A stretch of 64,000 nucleotides of DNA from Callorhinchus milii (GCF_018977255.1 NW_024704755.1:5890001-5954000), one strand, 5' to 3'; positions 16 to 22,600 are shown, numbered from the stretch's first letter. The notes: generated by a model not told the origin, from the sequence alone. A program made the numbers and translations.

Positions 16-3000
16 ATGTGGATCTCGGTCTTTCTTTTCTGCCTTTTTACTCTCACTTCTGCAGATGAGTTCAATGTACGGGCAAAGGAACTAATGAAAA
101 AACATCCACTCATAGACGGGTGAGTATCTATAAAAGTCACAAAACTGAACAATTTCTAGATTTGCACCATATATGGATTTAAGTGCAATTATGGATCAAG
201 ATAGTTGCTTTCTTTTAGCTATCAGTGATATTTACAGAAATTGTAATCTCCGTGTTAAAGCTGTTTTTGTGTATAAACTTGCACTAAGCACTCGGTGTCC
301 CAACAAAATGCAATGAACAATGCTAATGTTTCCTACAGCAACTGCACTTATATAAATAATAATTCTTGCATTTGATATATCGCCTTATCCCATTTCTTTT
401 ATGGGTGATTGACGTCTTTATATTAGAATTAATAGATACCAAAATACCACAATTTGTTTTTTGACATTTGAGCCCTTCTTTTCAGACACAATGATTTACC
501 CTGGCAACTTCTAAAACGTTTCCACAATCAGTTGAACAAAGTGGATCTGAACACATTCAATGAAACCCACACCAATATCCCTAAGCTGAAGCTTGGCCAT
601 GTTGGAGGACAGGTATGGTGTTTGTTTAGTCATCGATTGATTGAAGTATTTCGCTAACATACTCCTGCAAGAACATAAAGTAGCAATGAATGAGAAAGGC
701 CATCTAGGCCATGAAGCTGACTGCATCCAATGGATCATTCACAATTTACTCACAATAATTATATTCTAATATAACTGATGTAATCTTACGAAGGGACTTT
801 CAGGAGCAAAACATGGAGAAAAATGTTGCATTCCTCCTGAGCCCCAAAAGATCAAGGTTACCTTTAACTTGTTTGATTGATTAACAAGAACAAATTGAAC
901 TAATTGTCTGAAGTGGACTTTTGTGTGTCCCACTCTTCTAGTTTTGGGCAGCGTTCACACCATGTGACACCCAGTACAAAGATGCTGTGAGGCAGACCTT
1001 AGATCAGATTGATGTCATCCACAGAATGTGCAAGAAATACCCTGAGACATTCACTTTTGCTGAAACGAGCGCCGGTGAGTTCATAATAATAATAATAATG
1101 ATGATGATAATAGTAATAATAATAATAATAATCCTTGCATTTGATTTAGCGCCTTATCACGTTGTCCAGACATCTTAAAGGGCTTCACAGAATATACCGT
1201 AAAGTGAATCGACTATATTTTGTGAGCGAAACGCGGTAGCCAATTGCGCACATGGCAGTTGTGGAATGAGTTATCCATTCCCAGCATTTTCCATCATTAT
1301 TTATCTTGAAAGATTGGCCAACCAAACAACAACAACAAGATTCCATTTATAAAGCGCCTTTCACGTCAGGAGGACGTCCCAAGGCCCTGCACAGTTGGGT
1401 CATGACCCGAGCAGGGGGGAAATGGTCAGGGTGAGGGGAGGGAAGGGAGGGAGCGAGGAGGGGGGAAATGGTCAGGGTGAGGGGAGGGAAGGGAGGGAGC
1501 GAGGAGGGGGAAGAGAGTCGAGAGGGGAGCTGAAGGCACGATCAAACATCGTACCAACAGGGATCCAAACGTTAAAAATAGAGGAGAATCGAAACAAAAA
1601 TCTCTCAAAATCTGTCAGGAGGAAATCAACGTGATTTGTGACATCGCTTTGAATTCAAGTGAAAAAATCACTGATAACCTAAATCTCTTTCTTTCTGATC
1701 AGATATAAGGACAGCTTTCAAAAATAAAAAAGTGGCCAGTTTAATTGGTGTTGAAGGCGGACACTCGATAGACAGCAGCATGGCTACACTACGCCTCTTC
1801 TATTCACTAGGAGTGCGTTACATGACCCTTACACACAGCTGCAACACACCTTGGTAAGGAATAAATATTGCCATCATTTTCTCTCCTGTTAAAAAGATGG
1901 TCACTATTTGATATACGTGTTTCATCTAGTTTAACCCCATCACGTACAGTGTTCTGTTATGCCATGACATGGTAGCAGCACTTGTGTTCTTGAGGTGCCA
2001 GCTTACAGCTTTCTCATCAGATTTTTCTCAGTTCATTTCATGTTAGTACTTCAAAGCAGAGTAATACATGGTAACAACCTGATCACAGTACAAACACAGT
2101 GCTTTTAGTCTGTTTTACATTATTATATCACACGATATACTGGAAAGTGGAATGACTGTGTATTTTGTTGGCCAAACATGACAGCCAATTGCGCACACCA
2201 GGTTAACTCCAGATTAAACCATGTGAATTTACGGTCTGTGACCAAAGAAATATTTTGTAAAATCCTTTCAGGGCGGACTGCTGGAAGGTGAATACTGGAG
2301 CTGTGGAAGCCGAGAATAATGGACTGTCAGATTTCGGGAAGGTTAGTGAGTGCAGTGCATTTCATTACAAACATCCTCATAAATCTGAATAGATGACTGG
2401 CTCCTTTCAACCTTTCCAGTCACAATAATGTTGGTTCACATTATTCATGCAAAGCAGATTGAGAATGAGATTGAAAGGCCTGTGTCCTCATGTAAAACTG
2501 CTAGAGGAGCCATTCTCATTGCCAATACTCGACAACATCAACAGTGTGTTGAGACTCATGTTGAAACACCACTGCACAACAAGTTCAGTCTTATTTCCCA
2601 AGTTCCTGAGGTAACTCGGTTACTGAGAAATCCCATTGAGAAATACTGCAAATTAGATCCACTGAAGCTAAGAGATCACAGCATTGACAAAGCCAGGATG
2701 AACTCACCTCAGTGATGATGCATGAGTAAGTGTTAAATCAGATGCTGTTGGTTCTTTTCAACCTGCTAATATCGCTCTCCTTTATTGAACGTAAGAAAAT
2801 CATCAAAGAGATGAACCATCTGGGAATGATCGTGGATTTAGCCCATGTTTCTGTCAAGACGATGTCTGATGCGCTGGAGGTTTCAGAGGCCCCTATAATC
2901 TTTAGCCATTCATCTGCCTACGCCCTGTGTAAGCACGAACGCAATGTGCCGGATAATATTCTGAAGATTGTGGTAAGAATCTCAATAATCGTAAATTTCT

Positions 3001-6000
3001 CTAAATCGGAATTTTGTAGTAAAGTTTACTGATCTCAGTACAGTACAAACTTAGCTCAATGACCCATATTTGCCCACTAAATGCAAAATAGGCACGAGGT
3101 GTTAAACTTGACATGGGGCTTGAACCCCACAACCTTGGAGGCCATAGTGTTACTAACTGAACCAGGCTGCCATCAGGTTCAATCCCTGTGCCATTCTGTT
3201 CCTCCCGCCCCCCCCGCCCTGCATGTTAAGGTGCATGTTAAAAAAGTCCCATCAAGACAGGATGTTAGTCTTCACCTGGCAGTACTGATGCTGGGCCCAG
3301 CACTGTGAGGAGGTTTCAGTGGAGTAAATGTCAAAGGATGTATATGGTAATGGTTTTTGGTAACTTCCGATACCATTACGCAATTTGCAGCTTCTGGGTA
3401 CAGAGTGGTTGAAAATCCAGTTGTGGCTTTGAAAAGGGAATTGGATAGGTACTTGAAGAGGAAACATTTGCAGGGCTATGGGGTAAGAGCGGGGGAGGGG
3501 ACGAGTTGGATAGCCTTTTCAAAGAGTCGGCACAGGCACGATGGGTCGAAAGGCCTCCTTCTGTGCTGTAAGATTCTATGATTCTATGGTGAAAGCAGAG
3601 GCCTGTACAACAAGCTGTCTGTGGAAAGACAGATTCTCTAAATATCACGGCACAATGACAACCATTCAGATGAAAATCAATGTTTCAAGCGATATTTAGT
3701 AAATGCTTCTAGAATATGAAAACACGCCGTGTGTCCAGGACTTCAATTCTCTGCATATACCAGGTCTTTCAGCTCATTGACCCGCTGTATTGATGCATTT
3801 ATTTGACAGAAAGAGAAGAAAGGTGTCGTCATGGTGAACTTCTACAATACGTATGTGACCTGTAGTGACAATGCTAATCTGTCAGACGTAGCAGGTCAGT
3901 ATATGCAGTGTTTGACATACTCTTCATTCTTAAACCTTCAACTCGAAGGTGACAATCGATCAATCAATGATTGTGATAAACCAAATTTGTCCAGGAGACC
4001 ATGTTTTCAGCTTCTCTATTGATTAGTTGCTCCTGCACCAAGCCTGCCACTTCCGTGACAGTGCATTCATTTTCGATGAAATCACTGTTACTGTTTGCAT
4101 TTTGTCCACAGAGACGCAAATGTTTTGCAGATGTAGTTTCCTGTGTGATAACAACTATGCACCCACCAGTGTCAGCAGAGTATTTTAGAGTGGAAGGGGA
4201 AGAAGTGGAGGGTTGGAAAGCGGAAGAAGAGAAGAGTGTCAAGTTATGAACTTTTTTTAATTACTGAAAAGGCGCTGCAAAGTTGCTAGATAGCCAAATC
4301 TCATTTGGAGGAAGCAGATTACAATGAGATAAGACTTAAGTGACTTCAAGTTAGGGGAACAACTCAAAAGCAGCAAGACTCATTAAAAAAAATCCATGAG
4401 GCACAGTGGTAGATCTAATGCTGCAACCTGTATTCCTGGCAATTAGCTTAGCTTGATCCTGTTCACACCCACGGATACAGAGATAAGAAAGAGGGATAAA
4501 TAGCTTGGAGGTCCATCAAGCAAGTTCCCATGAGGATCCCTCAACCCACACAGTGTCCACCAGCACATCTCTCCATCTGCTGCCACTCACCTTGCTTAAC
4601 AGAGTCTGATCTCTTGAAATAATGTAGGCCTTTTATTCAGCCTGACACCCACAGTACCCTCTGTACCTATAGGGGAAAGGCGAGGCTTTCAGAATGAAAT
4701 GTTACTTTCAGCAGTTGTTTAGATTGCTTCAATACCACTTTGCAGGGCTATTTTGTGTCCCCAACCCTCCATGAGTTAGAGAACCTGAAGTTGAAAGATT
4801 GAGGTCAAACATGAGTTGCAAGAAATATCGACAAAGGAACACAATAGAATGGGGTTAATTCTAAGCATTCAGAGACGCTCCCCTGTGTGGAGGGTGCTAT
4901 ATAAGTGCAAGAAGTTGTTGTTGTTAATTATCATGGTGACATTGTCTGTTCAGGAAATGTATTATAATTGAACTCATGAACTCAAGTGAATTATCCCACA
5001 GCTTTGAATATCACGGTTAGAGTTAGAGTAAGATTTAAAAACTTTTCAAATTGTTTCTGCAGATCATTTTGATTACATCAAGAACGTTGCTGGTTACGAG
5101 GCCGTGGGGTTTGGTGGAGATTACGATGGTGTCAACAGGTCATTTTGAAAAATCCAGCTCATTTGCGATTGTTATTCAGTGCTACTCCTGGCTCGGAGTC
5201 AGGCTGAGACTCTAACCTGCGTGAAGGGCGGTATATAAGTGCAACTTTTTATTGTTGTACTAATTCACTGTCAATTATCAATAATAATAATATTAATCCT
5301 TGCATTTGATATAGCGCCTTATCACGTCTTTGAGATGTCTCAAAAGGCTTCATGGAATATATCATAAAGTGGATTGATTGTGTATTTTGTGAGCGAGACA
5401 CATGAATTGTTTAGTTAATTGAAAATGTACAGTATAAATGGGGGACTTAGAAAAGCAAACAGAAGCTTACTTAATAATAGTTAATAAACAATACACTCAC
5501 CCACATCATAAACTGGTACAGCTGTACTTAAGGATCTTCATGGAGGAACAAAATGTTCCGACTTGATACTTCACTTAGGTCAATGCTTACGGTTGCCTTT
5601 CACCGATTGCAGATTACCTACAGGGTTGGAGGACGTGTCCTTCTACCCGGATCTGGTGGCTGAGCTGCTGAGGAGAAACTGGACTGACATGGAGGTGCAA
5701 GCGGCTCTGGGAGAAAACCTCCTCCGGGTCTTTGAGGCCGTTGAAAATGTGAGGGCCACATGCTTTAAACCTTTACCCCCTGGGATTCTCATATTTTTGG
5801 AAACTGTTCTTTTTAAATTCAGGTGACTGCTAGTGTGTGTAAACTAGAATTAAACCAGCACTTGTTAATTTAGTAACAAGTGCTGGTTTACCCTGGTTTA
5901 TCCCGATTTGCTTAACCCCCAATCCACCACCCGCTGCCTCCGCTCGACTGGCTCCGGCCTCCTCTTTGTCCCTCGTGCCGTCCCTTCCACCATCGGTGGC

Positions 6001-7860
6001 CGCGCCTTCTGGAACTCCCTCCCTCAATCCCTCCGCTTTGCCCCCTCATTCCCCACCTTCAAATCCCTCCTAAAGAGCTTCCATTTTGATCGTGCTTACG
6101 GTCGCCTAACCCCCCCCCCCCTCCCTATCTCCCTGGCTGGTTGTCAGACTGCCACTGTGAAGCGCTCCGGGACGTTACCCCACGTGAAGGGCGCTATATA
6201 ACTGCAAGTTGTTGTTGTTGTAGTAGACCCCCCGATACAAGGCAGCCCATAAAATTCCAAGCTGCTTTACGACATCAAAAGTGGCCTAAATGTCATCATT
6301 TTCAGGTTGTGATGCCATCAATTACACGACTGAGGTGATGTATGCAACCTTTCACGTTAGTCTCGAAACATTTCAGAGTTATGGGGAAAAAGCAGGTAAA
6401 TGGGCCTGAAAGAGCCAGCACAGAAGTGATGGGGAGAATGACATTCTTCTGTGCTGTAAATCTACAATACGTTTCTATGGTTCATGGGATATATTGTAAA
6501 ATGGAGTGACTATATTTTTTGGCTGAACGGGTTTAATGTCCAGACAATATGCTGAAGCAATTTAAAAAGTTATTAGGAAATAGAACTGGCACAGTAAAAT
6601 ATAAATCTACAGACATTTTAAGGCTGATTAGAATACACTAAGCACAGTGTGTCCACACCTGGTATAGAAAAGAATAGTAAGGTTAATCCCCAATGCAAAG
6701 GAGCTATGAAGTTTATGCAATAATAACAAATTGAATCTTTAACCATCTATATTAGATTTTGTTTATCTTGTTTACATTTTCTATTGCTCTGTTAGGAGCT
6801 TTAATGTCTGTGTTCCAATGCCATCACTTAATCTCTTCGGTAAACTTTCCTGTGAGAAATGTGTATGCTATTGTTGGTGAATCTTTTATCTTTTATTTCC
6901 AGCACAGTACATGAAAAACCTACGGGAGACACTCTCCCCCCAGTCCCAGACTACACCTTACAATGTTAAAAACAACCTTTATTGTTGGCAATCTTGTAGC
7001 AACCTTTGGAGGAAATATCCAATCAAAGTCCAATTTGCCTATCTAAGTGGGTGATAAAATGGCACTGTTCAAAAAAAGGAGGAAGATTATTTTCGTATCC
7101 TGGTCAACAATCCTCCAGATAAAATTTTATTATTCACTTCCTGGTCTATAAACTAACTTTAATGCTATATAATTTAGCAACTGAGCACCCAACCAAATAA
7201 ATATAATAAATAGAAAAGTCACGGTTGAATTAGATAAGCATCAGCTGCAATAAAGTATAGCAACTCTTTCAGAAAACAAATGGCAGTGACTAAGATATGA
7301 ACCTAGATAAAAATGTGGAACTTCACCTTCACATTGATAATAACAGATATCACACGGTTGTTAACTAAAGATAACAAGAACTGGAGTCAGGTTTGCACTT
7401 TTATGCTCCAAATAAAGGGAACATTTTCCTTTTTTCTCTTGTCCCTTTTGAAGAGAACAATTAATACCCTACCCCCCCCCCCCCCCTCCCCCTCATCTGG
7501 ACTTTTGCTGTTAATTTATTGAGAAAAATTATTGGTTTTAACATAATCTATCGTAAAAAATGCTGAATTTTGCAGAACCTTCGGCTTTGGGGGGAGGGGA
7601 TAAACATGGCCTCTTGTTAAGCTGGATCACACATTGCTCTCAATCGCAAGCAGTGTGGTTTTAGTTAGCTGAACTCCAGCAGGGTAGAAATGGCAGCAAT
7701 TCAACAGTGAAATTGAAGCAAGTTGGGTTGTACAGGAGGGACTGAAACCTTTCTCTTTTGTGTTGTTTAGGTTAGAAACGAGCTGTTGGTTGATGACACC
7801 CCCATTTCTTATGACAAGGTTCAGAATCCATGTAGAACTTCTTACGGCTATTCAAACTGA
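16..7860 (+). CDS. DPEP1: Dipeptidase 1 (renal/membrane dipeptidase, peptidase family M19), 10 coding exons, ~382 aa to the first stop
   Basis: GT-AG exons with consistent phases: 16-119 ([23 protein letters not shown], signal peptide), 486-612 (HNDLPWQ..HTNIPKL..VGGQ), 942-1074 ([25 protein letters not shown]), 1703-1853 ([28 protein letters not shown]), 2272-2341, 2796-2972 ([18 protein letters not shown]), 3810-3894 (VMVNFYN), 5063-5138 (GFGGDYDGV), 5613-5748 ([19 protein letters not shown]), 7771-7860 (..[10 protein letters not shown]). Metal-binding HND and EGGH motifs of M19 dipeptidases are intact. Confidence 0.95.
1085..1255 (-). mobile_element. SINE 3' fragment (same family as 61164-61490)
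   Basis: (AAT)n CCTTGCATTTGATTTAGCGCCTTATCACG..GGGCTTCACAGAATATA..GCCAATTGCGCAC is the reverse complement of the SINE tail and core. Confidence 0.8.
1325..1550 (-). mobile_element. L2-type LINE 3' end fragment with an internal ~46-bp tandem duplication
   Basis: (AAC)n tail and AAAGCGCCTTTCACGTC..GGACGTCCCAAG; GAAGGCACGATCAAA matches the reverse of the L2 end near 6085; GGGGGAAATGGTCAGGGTGAGGGGAGGGAAGGGAGGGAGCGAGGA occurs twice. Confidence 0.6.
3390..3588 (+). mobile_element. CR1-type LINE 3' end
   Basis: ORF2 terminus [12 protein letters not shown] and 3' UTR GGCACAGGCACGATGGGTCGAAAGGCCTCCTTCTGTGCTGTAAG ending in (ATTCTATG)2. Confidence 0.8.
5281..5402 (-). mobile_element. SINE 3' fragment
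   Basis: ATAATAAT..CCTTGCATTTGATATAGCGCCTTATCACGTCTTTGAGATGTCTCAAAAGGCTTCA. Confidence 0.8.
5905..6221 (+). mobile_element. L2-clade LINE 3' fragment (ORF2 C-terminus plus tail)
   Basis: Translation [37 protein letters not shown] resembles the typical L2 ORF2 end; tail TGTGAAGCGCTCCGGGACG..GGCGCTATATAACTGCAAG(TTG)n. Confidence 0.8.
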
Positions 7861-7935
7861 TCCAATACCGGAATATCACTAAGTCTTCTGCCTGCATCTG
7901 TCGCTCTAGCTGCACTATGCTATCTGTTAGTGTAA
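7861..7935 (+). other. In-frame extension after the DPEP1 TGA encoding a GPI-anchor-signal-like peptide
   Basis: After TGA at 7858-7860 the same frame reads SNTGISLSLLPASVALAALCYLLV then TAA (7933-7935): small residues, spacer, hydrophobic tail, at the position of the GPI signal in mammalian DPEP1. Confidence 0.75.
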
Positions 7936-8325
7936 GGGTCAACAAACCACTTACTGTACGACAGTTAACATCAATATCTACAAGGGGCAGTGCTGTTGTT
8001 GTATCACTGAAACAACCATCACCTACGATAAGGAAATCCCAATTGAAAGAAAACATGATCGGGAGTACAGTGAACTTGTTTAGTATGTGTGTTATTGAAT
8101 TCTTATAATTCAACCCAAAGTTATCTCGAGACATTTTTATTAATGGTTTGTTTTTCAAATGTCAAGCACTTGAAATCACATAATTCAACAATTCAATCAG
8201 TACTATGAAATTAGCATTATAAAATATGTTATGTCTTGACTGAATACATTCTATATGATGTTCGTTAACCTCTCTCTCATCAATATAGTCTGTATTCTGT
8301 GTTGTGAAACTAAGAATTATGACAC

Positions 8326-8348
8326 AATAAAACATATTTTCAAATAAA
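8326..8348 (+). terminator. Candidate DPEP1 polyadenylation signals
   Basis: Two AATAAA hexamers (8326-8331, 8343-8348) about 400 nt after the last coding segment. Confidence 0.5.
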
Positions 8349-11131
8349 ACCAAGTTTTTTCAGTGTAGCACGAGGACAAACTTACAGTGCAGTCACTCAG
8401 AAAATTGTGTTACTTTAACTTACTAATGCTTTCTTCCAATTTAATATTATTATTATTATTATTAATAATCTGTAAGGCATAGTCTTAAATGTATTTCCTT
8501 TCACAAATGGCAAACTAATTATTTGATGTTTGATTTTTAAAAAATCTCTTAGTAGCAACTACTATCAGACACTGGGGGAAAAAAGGCAAAGTTAAAGCAA
8601 TTAAGGTTTATTCAGTAGAATGACCCAGTTAGTTATTCATTTCCCATTTTTGAAATGGTACTGGAAATTAAGACAACTTTTAACATTTGATATTTGAAAG
8701 TGATGATTTATTCAAATGTGAATCAGATAGATTTCTTTTATGATATAATATTTTGGGATGCAGTATATGAGCAGTTTGAAATATGATGTATAGTGAGTGT
8801 AGTATGGCTCAGAAGAATCAGGCAACTTTGCTTCGAAGGTTCCTAAAGCTTTCCACTCTGTTGCAGACGAATCCATAGAGAATTAATCAATATCAACATC
8901 CCTCCATTATTGTGACTATCAGGATGGTAGAATGCAAGCTAGATTGACATGGTCTTTTTGCGTCTAGCAATTCATACGTTCCCATGTTCAAACTAAATGT
9001 TTAGTTTCCTCTTGGAAAAGTCAACAGTAAACCAGGACTCCAAATGTCCCAGAATGGGATTTGGAGCCTGCAACTGCATCAAGTCCTTTTTCTGATTCAG
9101 GTGTAATTTCCTTGTTTGGTTGGCAGTTGTTCTCCTTTCTCCTTTCCAGCTAGTGGTGATTGCAGTCTAAACACCAGTATTGTGGTCGTATGAACTATCT
9201 ACCTCTCACACGAAGTGGAAAATAGGTCAAGTGGAAGTTCAGTAAATCTTATTAACAAAAACTTGTATCTAACTATTTACAGGAAACTCAAGCTTTAGGA
9301 ACCTTGTTTTGTATTCAGTGTTTCCAGTTCCTGTGGTTACCATCCTAATAGTCGCATGCTATAATGGAGAGATGTTGTAATATTAATCAATATACTGACA
9401 CATCATTCCCATTAGTACCAAAAATCTAATTTCCAATCTATGACCTTTTATAAAATTTGGGTGGCTTTCCTGACATTGGACCGTTCTGCTGACCTAAATA
9501 TGAATATGTGAAGCTATACAGATTCAATACAAGATAATCTTAAAATCTTCAATGTTTTGCATTTACACAAAAGCAAACCGATAGTAGCGTGGAAACAGGT
9601 TCATCATTTCCTTTGACTGCATTTTGTTGTTTTCCGCTTATAAATAAACATTGCGGTGAACTGTTTCATAAGCAGAGAACAAAGTGTGGTGAACAAGAAA
9701 TTATTCATCATGAGACGGATATTCCTGAAATTCCTGCTAACTGGTATTTCAGGGTTTGATGACCTCTACATACATTAAAGTTAATATAAACCAAAGTCCC
9801 AGTGCGAGGCTTGGATCCCTGTGAAGCGCTTTGAAATGTTTTCTGACATTAAAGCTGCTATAGTTGTCTAGTTGGCGCTGAACCCACACCTCTGACTGAA
9901 GTGTTACCAACTAAGCTAAAATAACACCTAATATTTTGTCTGAACTTGTGCCGAATATAGCATTTAATTCTACCTGGGCTTTATGTTCTTACCAATGAAT
10001 TTCCCACAAATACTTCTATAGACAATCCCATAATACATGAGGAAAGTTGTTTACTGCTCAGTATCAAATTCCACTTGATGTTTGCACTCCCAAATAAATG
10101 AGTCACCTAAAATTTCCCCAAGGCTGAAAATTTGGGTGACTTTTCTGACATTGGACCACAATAACTTCCAAGTAATCAAGATGGAATTCCCATCTACTTT
10201 CCCATGAAACTCCACACTCAGGTAGGTCAAGGGACTTTTACACTTTGTGAAAATATATTTTCCTACTGCAGAAAGCAGAATTGTCTGTTCAATCTCGCCA
10301 TGAAGCAACACTCTGGCGTTATTTTTCTACGAGCGACAATGTGATTAAAAACTTAAATATCTGCAATATTGGGAGCCAATCTATATTAAACTCCAACCGA
10401 GTCTGTTTCTGGAAGCTGATTTGTCCATTAAGTGACAGAAAGCCCCAAGTAATGTACCACAACTTTTTATTCCCAAATTTGAATTTGGGGCTATTTTGAA
10501 GCTGCTGATTAAATATTTCTGAGCAAAGTAATAAAATAATTGGATCATTTTCGCTAAATTGTGGGATCTTTACCTGATGGTTCTTCCCTTTTTTAGCTGT
10601 TTGGGAGTTTCTATCCGACAGCCTATTTTCATCTAATCCGTAGTCACAATACAATTTCATTTTTGGCAGTGATTTGGAGGCCTCACGTGGCCAAGCGTTG
10701 TATTACAGTAACACTATCTTACCTTTGTAAATAACATTATACTTTAACATTGTGCATAGCTAGGATTTGAAAATAAGACCATTCTTTGTGTTTTACACAA
10801 TATATAGCTAATTATTTTTCTGCCAAACAAATCGATCAAGGCTACTTTTGTATCGATAGCTAATTTTAAGATCATTCATAGATACGGTTTGGGTTGAGAG
10901 CCCAATTGAGTTGCTGCAAGGATGTTACACTAAATGTGAAGTTTCATTTTAATGGAAACACTGCAAGATATATTCCAAGTACCTGATCCCCAACATCAGA
11001 CCGTGCCTCATATATTATAGAGAATTAAAAATCAAAGTTACAAATTCTAATCTCTAAAACAATCTCAGGTGTAAAAATCTAATTACATCCATTTTTGAGT
11101 TTTGAAGTACAAGGGAAAGAACGTAGGAGGA

Positions 11132-11250
11132 ATAATAATAATCTTTGCACTTGATGTAGTGCCTTACAGTGTCTTTGAGCTGTCTCAAAAGTACTTCACA
11201 GAATATACTGTAAAGTGTAGTGACTGTATTTTGTGGGCGAAATGCGGTTT
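11132..11250 (-). mobile_element. SINE 3' fragment (duplicated at about 23934-24050)
   Basis: ATAATAATAATCTTTGCACTTGATGTAGTGCCTT..CTTCACAGAATATACTGTAAAGTG..TTTTGTGGGCGAAA. Confidence 0.75.
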
Positions 11251-12069
11251 TTGATCATTGTACACTGGGAGTTGAGGAATCCTGTAAACCCAGTTTATCT
11301 CGGCTTTTTTAAATCCGTTATGAGGTGAACAAAATAACCATGGCAGATCAGAAACTGCGTTTTTATATAGAAAATCGAATGTCATCTACTTTGAAGATGA
11401 ATACAAGCATACAACTGTGGATACAATCATATTGTAACAGATACAATACATTAGCAGGACTAACTGCAATGGTGGCAGAAAAAAAACTGTCATGCAGTAA
11501 ATTTTTTCAAATATTTTCTGCAAGTTAACGAGAAATCATACACTTTCCAATTAATGTATGTAAAATTCCCAAAATTCAAAAATCACACTGGATACAAGGT
11601 GAAATAGGTGTCAGAGATAGCCAGAGCTGGTTCCATGTAATCTTCAGCTAAAATAGTACTTTTAAACAATTACATTTAATACCTTAAATTTTAGTTATCA
11701 AAAATCATACCTCGTCCAAAAGTGTTCATTTCAATTCAATTTTGAGCCAAAATTAAGAAGGCACAACAGATATAAATATAAAACAATGGTCTGAATCACT
11801 ACGAACGTTCTGAAATGTGCTCTCTGATACAACTTTTGAGATCTTTAAAATATTGACTGCCTTGAAATACCAGCTTGAAAAAGCGATACAAGTTTGGAAA
11901 ACGATCTTGAATAACATTTCAGATGTTTTCATTTCTTACTGAAAGCAACCTTGAGCCTTCCCACAATCCGCTGCGGTGGAGCAGCAGTAAGTTGCTGAAT
12001 TATCTTCCCCTTCCATAGAGAATCTGACGTGTGAGAAATAGTTCTTTTTGTAGCTAATAAGACGATAAG

Positions 12070-14456
12070 TTATGTTAATGTATCCTCATGTCGTAAATAT
12101 TCGCCAATATCAGCCTGGTGAAATACAACGACTGCCATTGGGTCTAATTTCCGACAGTCTTGAGTTGATTTTGCAGCAACTCCAAAGCCCTGGAGAAAAT
12201 TAAGAAGATTTTTAAATTATGTAAATTGTACCAATGAACATTAATGGCATATTCTCAACATAGTCCTGAAAACCACATTGCCTATTTTGAAGGAAGGTCA
12301 TTTGTGAACAATAAGAGTCTGCAGTAATAAGAGTTACCAGTCTGCAAGTTATACTCAAATGATTACTCAGGTGTTTATATTACCTTTGCTTACAAATACA
12401 CAGGCAATAATCCTTAGCATATTCTTTTTCTGTTTGTTTTAATGTTTGTTCAGAGTAAAAATGATCCTATCCTCTTGCTTACCAATGGAACGTCAGCCAT
12501 GGAATAAACCACAACACCTTGATACTGAGCCGTGTTCTCCGTAATTCGGCCCAGACCAGATTTCAAAACGTGGTTTCCATACAGGAACGATTGTTCAGAT
12601 CCAGGCTTCACCCATACTTTGTACTGAAATTAAAACAAACACATTGTGCATTTTAGCAATGAGGACTGCGTGTGTGTCATTTAAGAAACCGTCTTGTCTC
12701 ATATTTTCATTTATTAACCATTTCTAAACTACATAAATTTACATTGACTTTTTGCTGCTACTCAATTGTCGGAACGTAGAGACACCTACCTTAGCATAGG
12801 GAGCAAGGTAGTCGAGAGCCGTTACATGCAATCGAAATTTTGATGTTTTGGTGAATTTCCCAAAGCATGTTCCTAATGAAACAAGTTTATTTCGAGGTAT
12901 ACTTGTTGCCAGTTTCAGGATGGTCTCACTGTGGAAAAAAAACCTCAACAAATCAGGTAGGGAGCAAAACCTTCCCACCTAAAGTAGAAAGCATTGCACA
13001 AATAAACTGCTATGAAGGGAAATCAAACTATTACATAAATCTGAACTCAGAACAACTGAATATGAACAAATTCTATCATCCCTTGTCACATACAGGATTC
13101 TTTAAAGTGAAGGTTTTCCCCCCCAGTCAGACCAAGTAACGTCAGGTCTCACTTCTTACCTGACGTAATAAATACGATCGTTGTGTAAACGGAAGCAGTA
13201 GGTTCCGTCAGGACGATCCACTAGCAGCTTAATATTCTCTCCAATGCTGAAGAAAAAAGTTTTGAAACAGTTAAAGTGCAAAATTACATATAGAATTAAT
13301 GAAATCAACCGTGAGCAAATCCGCAGATACAAAATAAACATACCCCCACATTGGAATTTTGAGCTCAATTAAATTATAGTGCAGTACTCCGGGAATTTTG
13401 GAAGTGTCGTCCTTTGAATGAGATATTAAACCAAAATCTTGTATCCATGGATGACAAAGATCGTTTACTTTAATCAGACGGAGTAACCCACCTGTAAGCC
13501 GCCCGTATACAGAAATTTCCTTGTGCCTGGAATGAAATGTGCACACTTTTTTTGGGGGGGATGCACCCTTATTACTTAAAATCTAAGAGTATGAGTCGTG
13601 TATCGGTGAGAACGAAACTCTGGGTTTCCCCAGAGTATTACGCTGTTACATAATAAATAATCCTTGTTTTTAACCGCAGCACCTTATCACGCGGAGACGT
13701 CTCAAAACGCTTCACAGGATATACCTGTACCGTAAAATTCTACTGATCAGCCAGACTGGCCGGTCTATCAACACCCGCGTCCTGGAGTACCCCGGGGCCG
13801 TCTGGCTCGGGGGAATGGACCACCACAGCGGGTACGCTGCCCAGCGTGTGCGCCTTGCCGCCTGCCAGCCCACGCATCCTTCGCCTACGTCCTCCCGAGG
13901 AGGTCAGTCGCACGCCGGTCACTGAACTCCGAGGTGGTTCCGTGGGGCCCCCTCGCCAGCGCGAATCGCTGACAAATCCGCACCGGCTACACATCTGACA
14001 GCGCGGTCGCCCCTTTCGCAAAAGCTTTTTTTTTCGGGGGGGGGGGGGGGCGGGGGAGAGGGAGGAGGAGAAACTTTAGGACTTTACATTCGCAGGTGAT
14101 GTGGATTATTCCCTGGACCCCCCCCCATTTTTATTCTGTTTTCTCTTAACCCTGTACAGCACCAGCCTGACCCCACGCCGTGAGAGGGGGGGGGGCAATG
14201 ACCACCATGACACGGGAGGGAGAGAGAGAGAGAGAGACCTGACAGATCCAAAGCTTTCACGCTCGGGCCCAGGGCCCCACGCGAGGCCCCGGTGTCCCCC
14301 CCCCCACCCTCTCCCTCTCTCCCTCTCCCTGTCCTCGGGCCCTCCTCCAGTTCCTCACTCCCCGGTCTCGGGGCGGGGGGTCGGTCGGTCGGACACTCAC
14401 TATCTTGAGAGCTTCTCGAACAGGAGCCGCGTTTCTTCCTCCGTCAGCGGCCGCAT
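12070..14456 (-). CDS. NIP7: 60S ribosome subunit biogenesis protein NIP7 homolog, copy 1 (intact, 180 aa)
   Basis: Exons 14456-14401 ([19 protein letters not shown]), 13246-13160 ([28 protein letters not shown]), 12928-12790 ([29 protein letters not shown]), 12623-12483 ([31 protein letters not shown]), 12189-12070 ([37 protein letters not shown]). All GT-AG with compatible phases. Confidence 0.96.
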
Positions 14457-17150
14457 CCTCCTCCCCGGCACGTGGTGCGCTTCCCCCCTCAGCCGCCTGT
14501 CCGCCCCGACCGCCTGTCCGCCCCGACCGGAAACGGAACTCTGTGTCTGTGGTCGTTCCGTCCGGGCGGAAATCCGCGTCTCCCCGGCAACCAACCAACC
14601 AACCAACCGCCCGCCCGCCCGCCCGCGGCTCCCGGTCACAGTCGAGCGCAGCGTTTTTAAACCCATCGTTTGTAAATTAACGGCCGCTCAGCGGCGGCCA
14701 CCGAGACTCTCTCTCTCCTTTCCTTCCTCCCTCCCTCCCTCCCTCGCATCCCGTTCCCTCCCTCCCTCCCTCCTCTGCTTTCCTTCCCTCTCTCCCTCCC
14801 CCTCGGTTGAAGATGAGTGGAATCAGTGGAGAAATGAGGCAAAGGTGACACAGCAGAGCCCTGAGCCCCGGGTGTGTGTGGGGGGGAAGAGAAGTGGGGC
14901 TATGATTTTGTTACCCGCCAGTTAGCCCCGGGTTACTGACTGTGTGTGGGGGGGGGGGCTGTGTGTGTGTGTTGGGGGGCTGTGTGTGTGTGTGTTGGGG
15001 GGCTGTGTGTGTGTGTGTTTGGGGGGGCTGTGTGTGTGTTGGGGGGGCTGTGTGTGTGTGTGTTGGGGGGGGGGGCTGTGTGTGTGTGTTGGGGGGGCTG
15101 TGTGTGTGTGTGTTGGGGGGGCTGTGTGTGTGTTGGGGGGGCTGTGTGTGTGTGTGTTGGGGGGGGGGGGGGGGGCTGTGTGTGTGTTGTGGTTGGGGGG
15201 GCTGTGTGTGTTGGGGGGGCTGTGTGTGTTGGGGGGCTGTGTGTGTTGGGGGGGTGTGTGTGTTGGGNNNNNNNNNNNNNNNNNNNNNNNNNNNNNNNNN
15301 NNNNNNNNNNNNNNNNNNNNNNNNNNNNNNNNNNNNNNNNNNNNNNNNNNNNNNNNNNNNNNNNNNNNNNNNNNNNNNNNNNNNNNNNNNNNNNNNNNNN
15401 NNNNNNNNNNNNNNNNNNNNNNTGTGTGTGTTGGGGGGGGCTGTGTGTGTGTTGGGGGGGGGCTGTGTGTGTGTTGGGGGGGGGGGGGGGGCTGTGTGTG
15501 TGTTGGGGGGGCTGTGTGTNNNNNNNNNNNNNNNNNNNNNNNNNNNNNNNNNNNNNNNNNNNNNNNNNNNNNNNNNNNNNNNNNNNNNNNNNNNNNNNNN
15601 NNNNNNNNNNNNNNNNNNNNNNNNNNNNNNNNNNNNNNNNNNNNNNNNNNNNNNNNNNNNNNNNNNNNNNNNNNNNNNNNNNNNNNNNNNNNNNNNNNNN
15701 NNNNNNNNNNNNNNNNNNNNNNNNNNNNNNNNNNNNNNNNNNNNNNNNNNNNNNNNNNNNNNNNNNNNNNNNNNNNNNNNNNNNNNNNNNNNNNNNNNNN
15801 NNNNNNNNNNNNNNNNNNNNNNNNNNNNNNNNNNNNNNNNNNNNNNNNNNNNNNNNNNNNNNNNNNNNNNNNNNNNNNNNNNNNNNNNNNNNNNNNNNNN
15901 NNNNNNNNNNNNNNNNNNNNNNNNNNNNNNNNNNGGGGTGCCGGGTGACAGCCGGAACCTTTCTCCTGGGTCCGTGGCGCCGCGTTTCCCGCTGGTCCGG
16001 GTCCCCGGGCTCCGGCTTCCGGTTGTTTACTCTCCGTTCGGTCTCCGGGGCCTCAGTCGGACAGTCGGTGGTTGTTGAGGGGGGAAAAAAAAAGCCGCGA
16101 AACTAAATGTATGTTATAAACACAATAACATCGTATCAATAAAAAAAAATGTGTTAACATTCCTTTATTTTACAATAATTTCGTTATTTTTTTAAAAAAA
16201 TTAAATAACATCCCCTCCCCCCACACACCCCCCACCCCTCACACCCCTCCCCCCCCCCCACACCCCCCCCCACATCACACACACTCCCCCCCACACCCCC
16301 TCACACACACACACTCAACATGAAACGGAACAAACGGGGCCGCTTCGTGTCGGTGGCGATGGCCAAGAAGATGGAGAAGCTGTCGGAGGGGCAGCGGCAG
16401 CGGTGGGTCCGGGACCAGCAGCCCCGGCCTGAGGGCGAGGCGGCGGCGGCGGCGGCCACACGAGCGGATTGTCGCGGGCCGGAGACAGGTCAGTGTCCCG
16501 GTCTGGCCTCCCCCCCTCTCCCCCCCCTCCCCCTCCCCCCCCCCCCCTCCCTCTCCCTCTCCCTCTCCCCTCCTCCAGATCACAACAATAATATATTTTA
16601 AAATGCAAAAGGGATTAAACGACGGCTTAAGGAAGGCTTCATCGCACAGTCCCCGGCGCTCCGGCTCGTGACAGGAGACCGAGAATCCGGGGAGGGAGGG
16701 AGGGAGGGCGGCTTTACACTCGGGCTCCAGCCCTCGGCACCTGTTCGGCTGCTCCGAGACCTCGGGCTCACTCCCTCCCTCACTCTCTCCCTCCCTCACT
16801 CGATCCCGGTTTGATCCCCATCCCGATCCGCTCGCAAAGTCAGTGTGGGGGGGGGAGGGGGGGCGCTTCGGACCCGTCGTTCGCTCGGGGCCGTCTTCCC
16901 CCGCCGACGAGTCGCGACTTCTGCCAAAACTTTGCACACTCCATAAAAAGCTGACGGCAGCGCCGGGGGCCGCCACAGAGGGGAGGGAGGGAGGGAGGGA
17001 GGGAGCCATCCCACTCAGCTCCTGCCCACCCCGCGAGGTAACGAGCCCTCGCTGGACATAGCAGAGCTCTATCGGCGACGGGGGCTGTGTAAGTTCCGAC
17101 TGTGATTAAACTCCCAACAGTACCCCCCCCCCCCCCCCCCACACACAGTG
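13740..17150. promoter_or_regulatory. CpG island / probable bidirectional promoter of NIP7 and ZNF276 (copy 1)
   Basis: GC- and CpG-rich interval spanning the divergent first coding exons (NIP7 ATG 14456, ZNF276 ATG 16320). ETS/GABP-type CCGGAA/TTCCGG motifs near 14527 and 16011-16022, and GC boxes. Interrupted by a G/GT minisatellite and N gaps. Confidence 0.65.
14940..15934. repeat. Compound G-run/(GT)n minisatellite (unit about GGGGGGGCTGTGTGTGTGTT), with assembly gaps
   Basis: Visible tandem units; N runs at 15268-15422 and 15520-15934. Confidence 0.9.
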
Positions 17151-17304
17151 ATGGCTAAAAGTAATTTTAAAAAAAATGACCCTCAACAAACTCACGCATG
17201 AACTGCAATAGGGCATACGATCGCTTCCATCAATCTGATGGGTTTGTTGGCGACTGACTTTGTTGGCGACTGACTGCTGGATTTATTGTTTGTAAAATAA
17301 CCCG

Positions 17305-17430
17305 CGGTGGGGGGGTGGTGGGGGGGGGGGTGGTGGGGGGGGTGGAGGGGGTGGGGGGGGGGGGGGGGGTGGGGGGGGGTGGAGGAGGGGGGGGGGGGGT
17401 GGAGGGGTGGGGGGGGGGGGGGGGGGGTGG
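17305..17430. repeat. G-rich low-complexity tract (G runs separated by T/A) in ZNF276 intron 1; repeated at about 29972-30126
   Basis: Directly visible poly-G/GGT runs. Confidence 0.85.
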
Positions 17431-19535
17431 TGTGAGCAGAGAGAAGTCGAGACAGTTTGATGATGAAGAAGCTGCAATGTACTTTTTTGTGTGGTGCACG
17501 TGAGAAGCTTCGGTCTGGCAGATTGTACGAGAGAGGTTACAACGATAGTGTTCCAGTACGTGGTCTTCCCGGATGTTCCAGGAACTCCACGTACTTGAAG
17601 GACTCAACCGGCCGCTGACCCCCCCCACCCCCCCCCCCCCGTTCCCCCCTTTTTTGAAGATGCATAACCAACTTAAATTAACTTTCCGTTAATGGCCACT
17701 ATTCGAACAAAAGCCGGAGAAGCACAGGAAGGACCGAGATTTGGTGGAGTGGCGCAATATCAAAGGTTTACACTTGCACTTACACTTGGAAGTGCAGGTC
17801 CAAGTTGTCCAATAGACAGGCGTTGGGGAGATGCAGCTATTGCAATGGTTATGGTCATGTCAGACAGTCTAGTCCTTGATCCCCTTAACATTCAACAAGT
17901 ATTTGCAACAGATCAGCTCCGAGTGCCAAGAGGCACCAGTGATATTCGCTTGTCTTACATCAATAGATTCTGTGATTTCCTGAAGGAAATCAGATGAACT
18001 ACTGAACCGTAACTTGGAAAATCTGAAGAATCAGTGACTGAGTCTCCTTATCTATGATCCCAGAGTTTATTTGTAGGACATCCAGCAGCTTGATGAGAAC
18101 TCCATCGCCAGTGAAATCAAAGTCTTTAAATATCTAACCTCACAAGAATGCTTCCCACATAGAGAATTTTGATGTAGAGCTAATATCCAGCAATCAGTGG
18201 TGCACCACCCTAATACAGCAATGTGCTGTAGCACCAAAATCCTTTTCGCATCTTTTAAATACTGTATGTAAGGGAAGAAATAATACTATTTTGATTTGTA
18301 AAACTAATTGCTAGTTTCAATATTTTAGTGAGTACCCCAGAAATGGATTTCTTTCAAAGTGCCTTTCCTAAATGTCAGCAATTTTAATACACACGATGAA
18401 CTAACTTCCTTAAATATTAGTTCTCAGCATAATTTACATAAAATAACAAATGGTAAATTTTTAAACAAAATTTCCTCCCCCTTTTCTATCAGCTGCACCT
18501 ATTGTTGTGACCACCAGCTATTGCCGCCTCTGCCATGGCAAGTTTTCCTCCAGGAGTTTGCGGAATGTCTTTGCAAAGGTTCCTCTGATTGACACAAATC
18601 CAGAGAGGCAGCGAAGAGCACAACAAACTTTCTGTGCCGATTTCCAGAGGCTGGTTGGCATTGTGGTAAGGCAGGATCCCACCTTGCCCCAGTTTATCTG
18701 CAGAACTGTCACGCTCAGTTTTTAAATGCCGGAGTATCCTGCGAAATTTCATTCAACGAGTGAATTCTTCTCCCGTGGCTCCCGTACAGCGAGGACAATA
18801 GGCGGGCAGGTACCTGAAGACCAGATGATTAATGTGTGTGTTATTTAATGTGTGTGTTATTTAATGTCACTAATGTACATAGTTAATTTATAACGTGTGC
18901 AGTACTCTACACCTGAGTGTCTGTTATACACAAGTATAACTTGAAAAGAAAATGTGAAAAGTATATTCAGCTATTATTTAGCATCTCCAGTCCAGTATTG
19001 GTCGGCTGAAGAAGGCACTGTGTCTCTATCTTAGTCTTGTTTTTATTTATTGTCTTGTTACACCACATTAGCCTTACACTCATTTGGGGTGAAGGAACTT
19101 GTACTTTCTTTGATATCGTTTCCCACTTGTGTCTTGATTGATAGCTTAGGTCTTCACAGTCAGGCGGGTGGATGGGTGGGATAATTAATTGGGTAAATAG
19201 AAAGCATTGAAAGCTTCACTAAATATAATTGTATGTTTTGACCACATTTCAAAAAATGCATAAAGGTAAGAGGCTTTTTTAAATTTTTTTTAGTATTTTG
19301 TGATAGGTTTCTTTACTCCTTAGAAAGATCAGCAGATGATAGATAAGTTACTATTTTTTTCATCGTCAACTGTAACTGAACAAAGAGCAACATTGATGTT
19401 AATTGTCGAGCATTCCATATAAATGCCCTTTTTATTAGCTACTGGATCAAGGCATAATTTGCCCCACAGCAAATAGAATTTAACTCACTGTTGTTTCACA
19501 TTTTGAATAAATGGGAGTTTTTGTGTTGTACAATC

Positions 19536-19648
19536 ATAATAATAATCCTTGCATTTCATATAGCGCTTTCCACTTCGGCGGGGACATTGCAAAGCATTTC
19601 ATAGGATATACTGTAAAGGTGTAGCAATTGTATTTTGTAGGCGAACAT
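19536..19648 (-). mobile_element. SINE 3' fragment (duplicated at about 32236-32348)
   Basis: ATAATAATAATCCTTGCATTTCATATAGCGCTTT..GGATATACTGTAAAG. Confidence 0.7.
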
Positions 19649-22600
19649 ACAAGAAGGGCATGTAGTTTATAAGTGACAGTAAATTTTACATTTTCAACCT
19701 CAGTTGAATGTAATGATTTTTTTCTTTGTAGGTTTTTTGCAGCCACTGAATGTCATTCACACCATCACTTTCACAGCCTCCATTAGGTGATTCAATTCCT
19801 GGTAAGTGAACCAGAGCGCAGTGCACAATTAGCTGGGTGTTTCACCTATATTAGTCGAGAAATGAAGTGTAGAACGAATTGGAAATTGCTGATAATATTT
19901 TCTGTTTGCATAGTACCAGGCATCATAATGACTCATTTTTGAATGTTCAGTTATTGTTTACGATTTATAGGAAAATGCAAAAATAATTATGTAGCACAAA
20001 TGTTTACTAAACATAGGAGGTTTCATTTATTTTGAAACGCGCTGCTTCAATCTACAGTACTGGATGTGGTACAGATTGTTTTATTTGCTTCTGATTTTTT
20101 TTAGATATCAAACATATGCTAAATGATAGACTCTTAAGTGCAAGCCCACAATGTCTGCAGATTCTAGTCACTTGGGCTCACCATCATGGCAGTAGCTGCA
20201 AATCCACACCGAGCCTTCAGAGCGTCTTATCTGCAGAGTATCGTGGAGTGGTTGGAGCTGTGTGGGGCTGCCAGGAGGGGCACAGTTATATCCTGGACAC
20301 ACATTTAAATCACAGTGTTTCACTTAGTGAAGAGCACTGCCCACGCAAAGAGAATAATGATCCAGTGAAAGAGGAAATTGTGGAGAGCACATCATCACGC
20401 CTGTCTTCCCAGAATGGATCGGGCCCCGAAAATGGCGAGGGCAGGTCTATCTCGAAGCCTCAGCCAGTCCCAGTGTCACTTTGGTCGTTAGACTGCCAGC
20501 CTTGTACACACAGTGGGGTTGGTTCACAGCCAGCAGACACAGACAATTCAGGCCAATCGTCATTGAACAAGGACATGTTTTTACGATCACAGCCTGTTGG
20601 TGTTGAATGCTCTTGGGAAACACTTCACTTGCAGGATGCTACTCGGGTTTTAAAATCAAAAGGTAAGAGCTTTATTTAAATGCTAGTTTTCAAGTTTTAT
20701 TTAAATGCACTAAAATAACTAAACTTGCAGTAAAATGCAAGTTTTAGTTCAAAAGCTGAAACGTAACTGGAGCAATGACACAAACCAGCAGCTGGTACAT
20801 TATTTTGAAGTCTGTTAATGAGATGATGTGAAAACAGTGTAATAAACGCACTTGTTGGGAACTCCTCCTACTTGCTTTGATAATAACTATTACTGTATTA
20901 GAACGTGTTAAGCCTTGCCTCCCGCATAACCAAAATTATCCATTGCCTCTGAAAGACAAATTCCTGTCAGAGGTGAAGAGATCCTATTAAAAGGTTAAGT
21001 CTGCACTGACATTTATGCAGAAGTTAACTGCATGTCAGAGTGGTTTATTTTTATTACTCTTTAAAGATGCAGTGTCACTGTTTGTACCTCTTATGCCAAC
21101 ATCAGAGAAGTGATTTGCCTCAGGAATGGCCTTGCAGATTGAATGCTACAAGCAGGTTTTTTGTTTTTAGAGTTGATTTCTGATTCTGATTTTAGAGTTA
21201 ATTTTATCTGATGAAAGGATCAAGTACTGCGATACTTGGTGTTAATGGCTTGGTAATCGTGCTTAACGTAGCCACGAAAACTTGTTCCGCTTTGTTTCTT
21301 GCTCTACCCTAACTGTTGTAACAATTTTTTTTACTTTCGTCACCAATAGGTCAAATGAGCTGCAACAAAGCATCGTGTTCCATTATGGTTGATGCCGCTG
21401 ATGGGTTAGAGTCCAGTGATCTCTCTGATAGGTAGGAGTCATTACTGCCAGCGGTGTTCTACTGAGACAATGTACAACGTTCAGTTGAAAGTTTCGCTTG
21501 GAACTCAGATCTTTCATGCTCCGTGATTGCAAGAACTCTAAGAGCTCTAGCTNNNNNNNNNNNNNNNNNNNNNNNNNNNNNNTTGAGGGTGTTGTGGGTT
21601 ACCGTCATCAAGTTATTTCGCGTCACGCCCATGCGGGTTAGATCGTGTGTACGAAGCTTTCCACTCTGTTGCAGACGAATCCATAAAGAATTAATCAATA
21701 TCAACATCCCTCCATTATTGTGACTATCAGGATGGTAGAATGCAAGCTAGATTGACATGGTCTTTTTGCGTCTAGCAATTCATACGTTCCCATGTTCAAA
21801 CTAAATGTTTAGTTTCCTCTTGGAAAAGTCAACAGTAAACCAGGACTCCAAATGTCCCAGAATGGGATTTGGAGCCTGCAACTGCATCAAGTCCTTTTTC
21901 TATTCAGGTGTAATTTCCTTGTTTGGTTGGCAGTTGTTCCCTTTCTCCTTTCCAGCTAGTGGTGATTGCAGTCTAAACACCAGTATTGTGGTCGTATGAA
22001 CTATCTACCTCTCACACGAAGTGGAAAATAGGTCAAGTGGAAGTTCAGTAAATCTTATTAACAAAAACTTGTATCTAACTATTTACAGGAAACTCAAGCT
22101 TTAGGAACCTTGTTTTGTATTCAGTGTTTCCAGTTCCTGTGGTTACCATCCTAATAGTCGCATGCTATAATGGAGAGATGTTGTAATATTAATCAATATA
22201 CTGACACATCATTCCATTAGTACCAAAAATCTAATTTCCAATCTATGACCTTTTATAAAATTTGGGTGGCTTTCCTGACATTGGACCGTTCTGCTGACCT
22301 AAATATGAATATGTGAAGCTATACAGATTCAATACAAGATAATCTTAAAATCTTCAATGTTTTGCATTTACACAAAAGCAAACCGATAGTAGCGTGGAAA
22401 CAGGTTCATCATTTCCTTTGACTGCATTTTGTTGTTTTCCGCTTATAAATAAACATTGCGGTGAACTGTTTCATAAGCAGAGAACAAAGTGTGGTGAACA
22501 AGAAATTATTCATCATGAGACGGATATTCCTGAAATTCCTGCTAACTGGTATTTCAGGGTTTGATGACCTCTACATACATTAAAGTTAATATAAACCAAA

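Follow-up and report, generated by a model that had tools for sequence, protein, structure and literature searches.

The DPEP1 gene of the elephant shark, Callorhinchus milii, carries an in-frame TGA at codon 383 of its last exon, immediately ahead of 24 open codons with a hydrophobic end. This arrangement probably stems from a nonsense change specific to the lineage, either fixed or common, which likely gives a secreted enzyme and leaves the tail as a relic. A sequence-only reading of the window (the whole stretch of 64,000 nucleotides analysed, GCF_018977255.1 NW_024704755.1:5890001-5954000) had proposed a readthrough switch between secreted and membrane-anchored forms. Its observation is confirmed and its interpretation partly supported, and the recent nonsense change that it offered as an alternative fits best.

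The DPEP1 gene and its predicted product

The gene at the start of the window is C. milii DPEP1 (Table 1). It has 10 coding exons with GT..AG at every intron, and the joined frame of 408 codons contains one internal stop (TGA, codon 383), giving a product of 382 aa if the TGA terminates and 407 aa if it is decoded. These are the lengths given in the sequence-only reading, and the last exon at 7771-7935, with its translation and its two stops, also reads exactly as had been claimed. The assignment to DPEP1 is borne out by identity of the 382-aa product with RefSeq XP_007887533.1 (dipeptidase 1, Callorhinchus milii), by a PF01244 (peptidase M19) match at residues 26-349 (E 8.4e-124) and by a sister position to 15 elasmobranch DPEP1 proteins (support 95/89, in a tree built without paralogues); the best protein matches carry the name dipeptidase 1. 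FANCA exons (PF15865) are present in the same window at 57103-59300 on the minus strand, the two genes being neighbours on human chromosome 16 as well.

Table 1. Features of C. milii DPEP1, in window coordinates
Feature	Position	Strand	Basis
Coding exon 1: ATG, predicted signal peptide, mature-domain start	16-119	+	identical to XP_007887533.1
Coding exon 2: HND motif, His36/Asp38	486-612	+	joined frame, 1ITQ alignment
Coding exon 3	942-1074	+	run X5 contig piece on 940-1044
Coding exon 4: Glu139, His166	1703-1853	+	joined frame, alignment
Coding exon 5	2272-2341	+	joined frame
Coding exon 6: His212, His233, Arg244	2796-2972	+	run X5 contig piece on 2793-2959
Coding exon 7	3810-3894	+	joined frame
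Coding exon 8: Asp302	5063-5138	+	joined frame, alignment
Coding exon 9	5613-5748	+	joined frame
Terminal exon, translated part: residues 354-382, dimer Cys374 in CRTxYGY	7771-7857	+	X5 contig piece starts exactly at 7771
In-frame TGA, codon 383, context AAC-TGA-TCC	7858-7860	+	translation, run contigs, elasmobranch alignment
Stranded ancestral GPI signal, 24 codons, hydrophobic end	7861-7932	+	homology
Predicted omega Asn385, omega+2 Gly387	7864-7866 (Asn385)	+	predicted from alignment
Second stop TAA, where elasmobranch DPEP1 proteins end	7933-7935	+	translation, alignment
Two AATAAA hexamers (8326, 8343), likely poly(A) signals	8326-8348	+	sequence

All eight active-site positions (His36, Asp38, Glu139, His166, His212, His233, Arg244 and Asp302) align with 1ITQ, and the metal ligands and catalytic residues of human DPEP1 are His20, Asp22, Glu125, His152, His198, His219, Arg230 and Asp288. 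The dimer cysteine, Cys374, is invariant in 16/16 chondrichthyans; that of the human enzyme is Cys361. The alignment to 1ITQ extends over residues 19-381 (E 1.7e-159), with Asn382 falling on the final residue of the 369-aa chain. The domain branch of C. milii is not long (0.22, compared with about 0.16-0.38 from the same node to the elasmobranch tips). Because it lies in the last exon, the TGA would not set off nonsense-mediated decay of the junction-dependent kind. Soluble human and pig DPEP1 constructs comprise residues 17-385, and the pig construct was crystallised as a dimer (PMC12578638). Given the aligned catalytic motifs and cysteine, the match to the soluble constructs, the unexceptional branch and the escape from decay, termination is predicted to yield an active dimer that is secreted, in agreement with the soluble enzyme, retaining its catalytic residues and dimer cysteine, that had been proposed.

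The 24-codon tail is, by homology, a true ancestral GPI signal, as had been suggested from its hydrophobic character. It aligns with the C-termini of 15/15 elasmobranch orthologues at 8-15 identities in 24, the closest being that of Heptranchias (15/24). Its mean alignment score of 42.6 compares with 7.0 +/- 4.1 for shuffled tails, none of 1000 of which reached 42.6. Such segments are rare by chance: 6 of the 6417 stop-to-stop segments in the window are 18-35 aa long, carry no charge and have a hydropathy of at least 2.0 across the last 18 residues. Asn385, Gly387 and Pro394 (read-through numbering) are invariant in 16/16 chondrichthyans. GPI-signal rules allow an omega at Asn385 with Gly at omega+2, and the chondrichthyan omega is more likely to be this invariant Asn of N-x-G, two codons past the stop, judging from the alignment. 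The earlier statement that the TGA falls at the anchoring point holds in that the stop lies just before the GPI signal, which the TGA separates from the enzyme, and is refined in that the predicted omega lies two codons later.

Other features of the locus may be recorded here. Residue 175, in exon 5, is Cys in C. milii (W-A-D-C-W) versus Asn in the orthologues displayed, and constitutes an additional cysteine in the extracellular domain. A C to G difference at 5085 in run X2 is an apparent Asn to Lys variant, Lys being the residue of most elasmobranchs, and codon 1711-1713 shows an apparent amino-acid variant, Thr126 in the genome and Ala in UniProt V9KQQ2. The automatic gene models A0A4W3J9B4 and A0A4W3JDJ8, with ends at 6300-6340 and 8388-8480, disagree with the true last exon and look like annotation artefacts; the hydrophobic end of A0A4W3JDJ8 derives partly from a simple repeat past the poly(A) signals. 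Starting 0.5 kb past those signals, and leaving the last exon of DPEP1 outside the duplicated unit, is a tandem duplication of ~12.7 kb (8846-21552 and 21654-34242, 97-98.6% identity, with 30 N at the junction, 21553-21582), which is either real or two haplotypes assembled side by side. Both copies contain a 194-codon open frame on the plus strand (20095-20679 and 32797-33381), the two versions unlike at a single residue, which had no match in a Pfam search and is probably an exon of a neighbouring gene.

Authenticity and distribution of the stop

The TGA at codon 383 appears to be genuine, and an assembly error is very unlikely. A contig from run X8 spans 7688-7973, including intron sequence, with 0 differences from the assembly, and runs X1-X4 contain 58/58 sampled words of 7771-8340 (share 1.00), the chance that none of these words covers the TGA codon being about 3%. 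X1-X4 are four sample labels from one study, and possibly fewer than four animals. With 10 differences in 7261 aligned bases, run X2 represents a haplotype other than that of the assembly, and it still has every sampled exon word. V9KQQ2, presumably derived from a cDNA, is unlike the genome at residue 126 and yet has the same last residue, Asn382. A single codon breaking an otherwise perfect frame might point to the single base error considered in the sequence-only reading, in a normal GPI-anchored gene. With X8 matching exactly, every sampled word present in each of X1-X4 and V9KQQ2, from a second allele, ending alike, an error of sequencing or assembly is scarcely credible.

Run X5 behaves like spliced RNA, since its pieces lie on exons and several purely intronic bins have zero depth. 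Its 378-nt contig, the sole RNA-like contig over the last exon, lies on 7771-8054, from the first base of the exon onward, unspliced and with one difference somewhere within. The run contigs (Logan) were aligned over 8.5 kb at 80% likeness; they omit variants and are evidence of presence only, never of absence, and the TGA may therefore be common rather than fixed. Run X6, labelled organism B, matches the 3' UTR only (8078-8333, 2 differences in 256 bases), short of the stop, and represents either a very close relative or a mislabel. The 382-aa protein stands in RefSeq and UniProt uncommented, and one automatic model splices past the stop.

Among the jawed vertebrates scored, the stop appears from the alignments to be lineage-specific. 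All 15 elasmobranch orthologues among the matches listed are open past the stop column, none having a stop, and the TGA conserved across sharks and rays for which the sequence-only reading had proposed an alignment is thus found in none of them. The stop column itself holds Gln in 12/15 elasmobranchs and a gap in 3/15, making the suggested TCA or TGC an unlikely ancestor. More widely, 153/153 non-Callorhinchus matches with the C-terminal Cys motif extend for at least 20 residues, among the matches listed (229 proteins, of which 153 were scored and 76, without the Cys motif, were left unscored). No holocephalan other than C. milii covered the codon in 120 listed of 368, or of 214, protein matches, and a search among shorter proteins gave no candidate. 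A 50%-cluster search returned 34 matches, of which the three short ones inspected have two teleost-like C-termini and one bamboo-shark-like C-terminus; the other 31 are long, multi-stretch matches at 26-40% identity. A genome of Chimaera phantasma, ~187 million years from C. milii, has been published (PMC12952989).

Origin of the stop and competing explanations

The preferred explanation, a nonsense change in the lineage, would involve a series of steps. Within the chimaera lineage an ancestral Gln codon would have become TGA in two changes, the simplest plausible route being CAA to CGA followed by CpG deamination to TGA. The need for two changes from Gln counts against this explanation, and the less simple path CAA to TAA to TGA would imply an older stop. 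Ribosomes would mostly halt at residue 382, the signal peptide would direct the protein to the ER and Cys374 would build the dimer. With the hydrophobic tail absent, no GPI would be added and the dimer would be secreted, while a basal UGA-U leak, likely well under 1%, might incidentally leave a little of the enzyme anchored. The loss of the anchor may be buffered by two paralogues whose own hydrophobic tails are open; their presence may have made an anchored DPEP1 less necessary.

These two further dipeptidase genes are located near 11.37 Mb and near 7.01 Mb of the same contig, and the candidate last exon of each terminates with a hydrophobic tail that is open. In the gene at C14:11.366-11.382 Mb, which has such a tail, the GVEGGH motif reads GIEGGF; contig C198, probably a haplotig, repeats this gene at 98.8-100% (loci L012-L014 and L021-L022). 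In the third gene, at C14:7.017-7.023 Mb (loci L015-L020), the candidate GPI-like last exon was chosen by eye from acceptor-led frames, and a profile of DPEP1 last exons failed to recover it. A lone copy of exon 6 of this gene, with the same translation, is present on contig C13:17.42 Mb.

The state of the tail bears on the age of the stop. It shows no sign of decay, with its invariant Asn, Gly and Pro and its ancestral end position, and is conserved like the translated part of the same exon: mean identity to elasmobranchs is 45% for the tail and 48.5% for the translated part, the corresponding figures between sharks and rays being 59% and 65%. An undecayed tail that ends at its ancestral position is what would be expected of a selected extension, and counts against a relic. 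However, intact tails are expected to last long without selection. Neutral evolution was simulated 600 times per level, transition, CpG and indel rates being assumed. At 0.01, 0.05, 0.1 and 0.2 substitutions per site the tail was still GPI-like in 88%, 52%, 29% and 8% of the simulations, respectively, and survival in about half of the simulations at 0.05 means that tail integrity says little about selection. Assuming 1e-9 per year, a distance of 0.05 corresponds to 50 million years; with the epaulette-shark rate (7e-10 per generation, PMC10587355) and assumed generation times it exceeds 350 million years, so that dating of the stop by mutation rate is weak. The intact tail implies that the stop is either much younger than the ~400-million-year elasmobranch split or under selection.

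A perfect tail is also compatible with a very young change, and the TGA could be a common polymorphism, some animals having a sense codon and GPI-anchored DPEP1. The presence-only nature of the Logan contigs leaves room for such a segregating allele, as do the single difference in X5 and the origin of X1-X4 in one study. Yet all records readable at the codon, namely the assembly, V9KQQ2, X8 and (judged from shared words) X1-X4, show the stop or end there, X2 with its different haplotype included. The likelihood of the run data is 0.12 if five animals are represented and 0.28 if two at a TGA frequency of 0.5, and 0.00002 and 0.004, respectively, at a frequency of 0.1. A rare private allele is unlikely, and a common segregating one is also rather unlikely. 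Restoration of the anchored form in RNA, by alternative splicing, A-to-I editing of UGA to UGG or selenocysteine, would be consistent with the single X5 difference, and model A0A4W3JDJ8 does splice out before the stop onto a downstream hydrophobic frame. That model, however, requires a GC donor at 7847 that departs from the consensus, and its acceptor, at 8387, lies past both AATAAA hexamers. The alternative terminal exon considered in the sequence-only reading is unlikely. Just four GT/GC..AG pairs drop the stop in frame, all with donors judged poor by eye; three delete the dimer-cysteine codon and three, overlapping with these, hit the omega region, none sparing both. In addition, X5 is unspliced across 7771-8054 and the last exon has no second copy in the genome. 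The best duplex of the TGA region with intron 9 or the 3' UTR, as would serve editing, is weaker than 16/17 control windows. An Rfam search of 7700-9500 (E<=10) found no SECIS among its matches, of which there were six weak ones, and a loose SECIS-like pattern at 8205 has a weak fold and belongs to a pattern rarer than chance (2 matches, 6.8 expected). Bypass of the stop in RNA is thus highly improbable.

If Trp, Cys or Arg were inserted at the UGA often enough to be useful, a minor 407-aa precursor, GPI-anchored at Asn385, would arise beside a major secreted form, with the tail under selection. The conserved tail is in keeping with this. The stop codon is moreover UGA, the one most prone to leak, and a pyrimidine follows at +4; termination before U at that position is relatively poor, less markedly so than at UGA-C (PMC5829715). 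An inserted residue would occupy a variable linker position, two before the predicted omega, and any residue should therefore be tolerated there, and a stop-then-GPI layout functions when engineered (PMC6590230). Against decoding, the context is UGA-UCCA, with no CUAG motif, as the sequence-only reading had recognised together with the lack of a SECIS, and most contexts fail in <0.2% of events, UGA-C being the exception (PMC5829715). Basal readthrough is commonly <0.1% according to a preprint (10.1101/2021.04.18.440353). Five folds around the stop were no stabler than shuffles (z -0.16 to +1.48; -0.16 for 7861-7960 and 0.21 for 7861-8000), in a test of pseudoknot-free folds; the folding and SECIS checks proposed for the region past the TGA thus revealed no unusual structure. 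The stop is also missing from 15/15 elasmobranchs. For programmed readthrough no positive sign was found, the proposed switch is not supported, and DPEP1 of C. milii is not shown to be a UGA-CUAG readthrough gene or a selenoprotein. Useful decoding of the UGA is accordingly distinctly unlikely, and the nonsense change remains the preferred explanation.

Comparison with known systems and significance

Mammalian DPEP1 (renal or membrane dipeptidase, M19; PDB 1ITQ, 9H0B) has the same domain, catalytic motifs and dimer cysteine, and the predicted natural product of C. milii corresponds to its recombinant soluble ectodomain (17-385; PMC12578638). In contrast to the mammalian gene, the annotated C. 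milii frame stops ahead of the GPI signal. A parallel case is human FOLR3, a secreted folate receptor without a GPI signal. CEACAMs offer a further likeness, in that a point mutation to a stop alters protein attachment in a lineage-specific manner: GPI-linked CEACAMs arose via stops in transmembrane exons (PMC2832619) and secreted horse CEACAMs via nonsense mutations (PMC13212111). The C. milii change differs in going from GPI-anchored to secreted, and in affecting a conserved enzyme, through an orthologue present in single copy, instead of an expanding receptor family.

The UGA-CUAG genes AQP4, MAPK10, OPRK1 and OPRL1 resemble DPEP1 in having a UGA followed by an open, conserved extension. 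In PMC4132726, four confirmed genes have UGA-CUAG conserved across vertebrates and deletion of the motif nearly abolishes readthrough, whereas DPEP1 lacks CUAG and its stop is absent from the 15 elasmobranchs. The C. milii extension would be an ancestral, obligatory C-terminus, and that of the UGA-CUAG genes is an add-on (PMC4132726). Engineered CHO display/secretion cassettes have the same layout of secreted protein, stop and in-frame GPI signal; these artificial constructs depend on amber suppression or on stops designed to leak (PMC6590230), and a comparable suppression rate is not indicated for the C. milii stop.

No natural stop/readthrough switch with a GPI anchor was found in the literature searched, in which subscription journals are scarce; as these mostly lie outside the search, absence from print is not established. 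The layout came up there solely in engineered form. Callorhinchus and dipeptidase literature yielded no paper on DPEP1 of C. milii by title or abstract. Two candidate papers were set aside, PMC10199209, which deals with transcriptional readthrough and has no bearing on the stop/GPI question, and PMC10707392, which deals with another dipeptidase and has none on the DPEP1 stop.

A natural vertebrate switch, in which leakiness at one UGA governs how much enzyme is secreted and how much GPI-anchored, and in which chimaeras share the stop and selection keeps the tail, is decidedly doubtful; a stop shared across chimaeras with a preserved tail would nevertheless represent a natural, readthrough-controlled choice between secretion and anchoring. 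If the preferred reading, a lineage-specific nonsense change, is true, a much-used reference species would be derived at DPEP1, and caution would be due. In the elephant shark DPEP1 would then naturally lack the GPI anchor that ties it to the membrane in the other jawed vertebrates scored, and the species would provide a route to asking what purpose this anchor serves.
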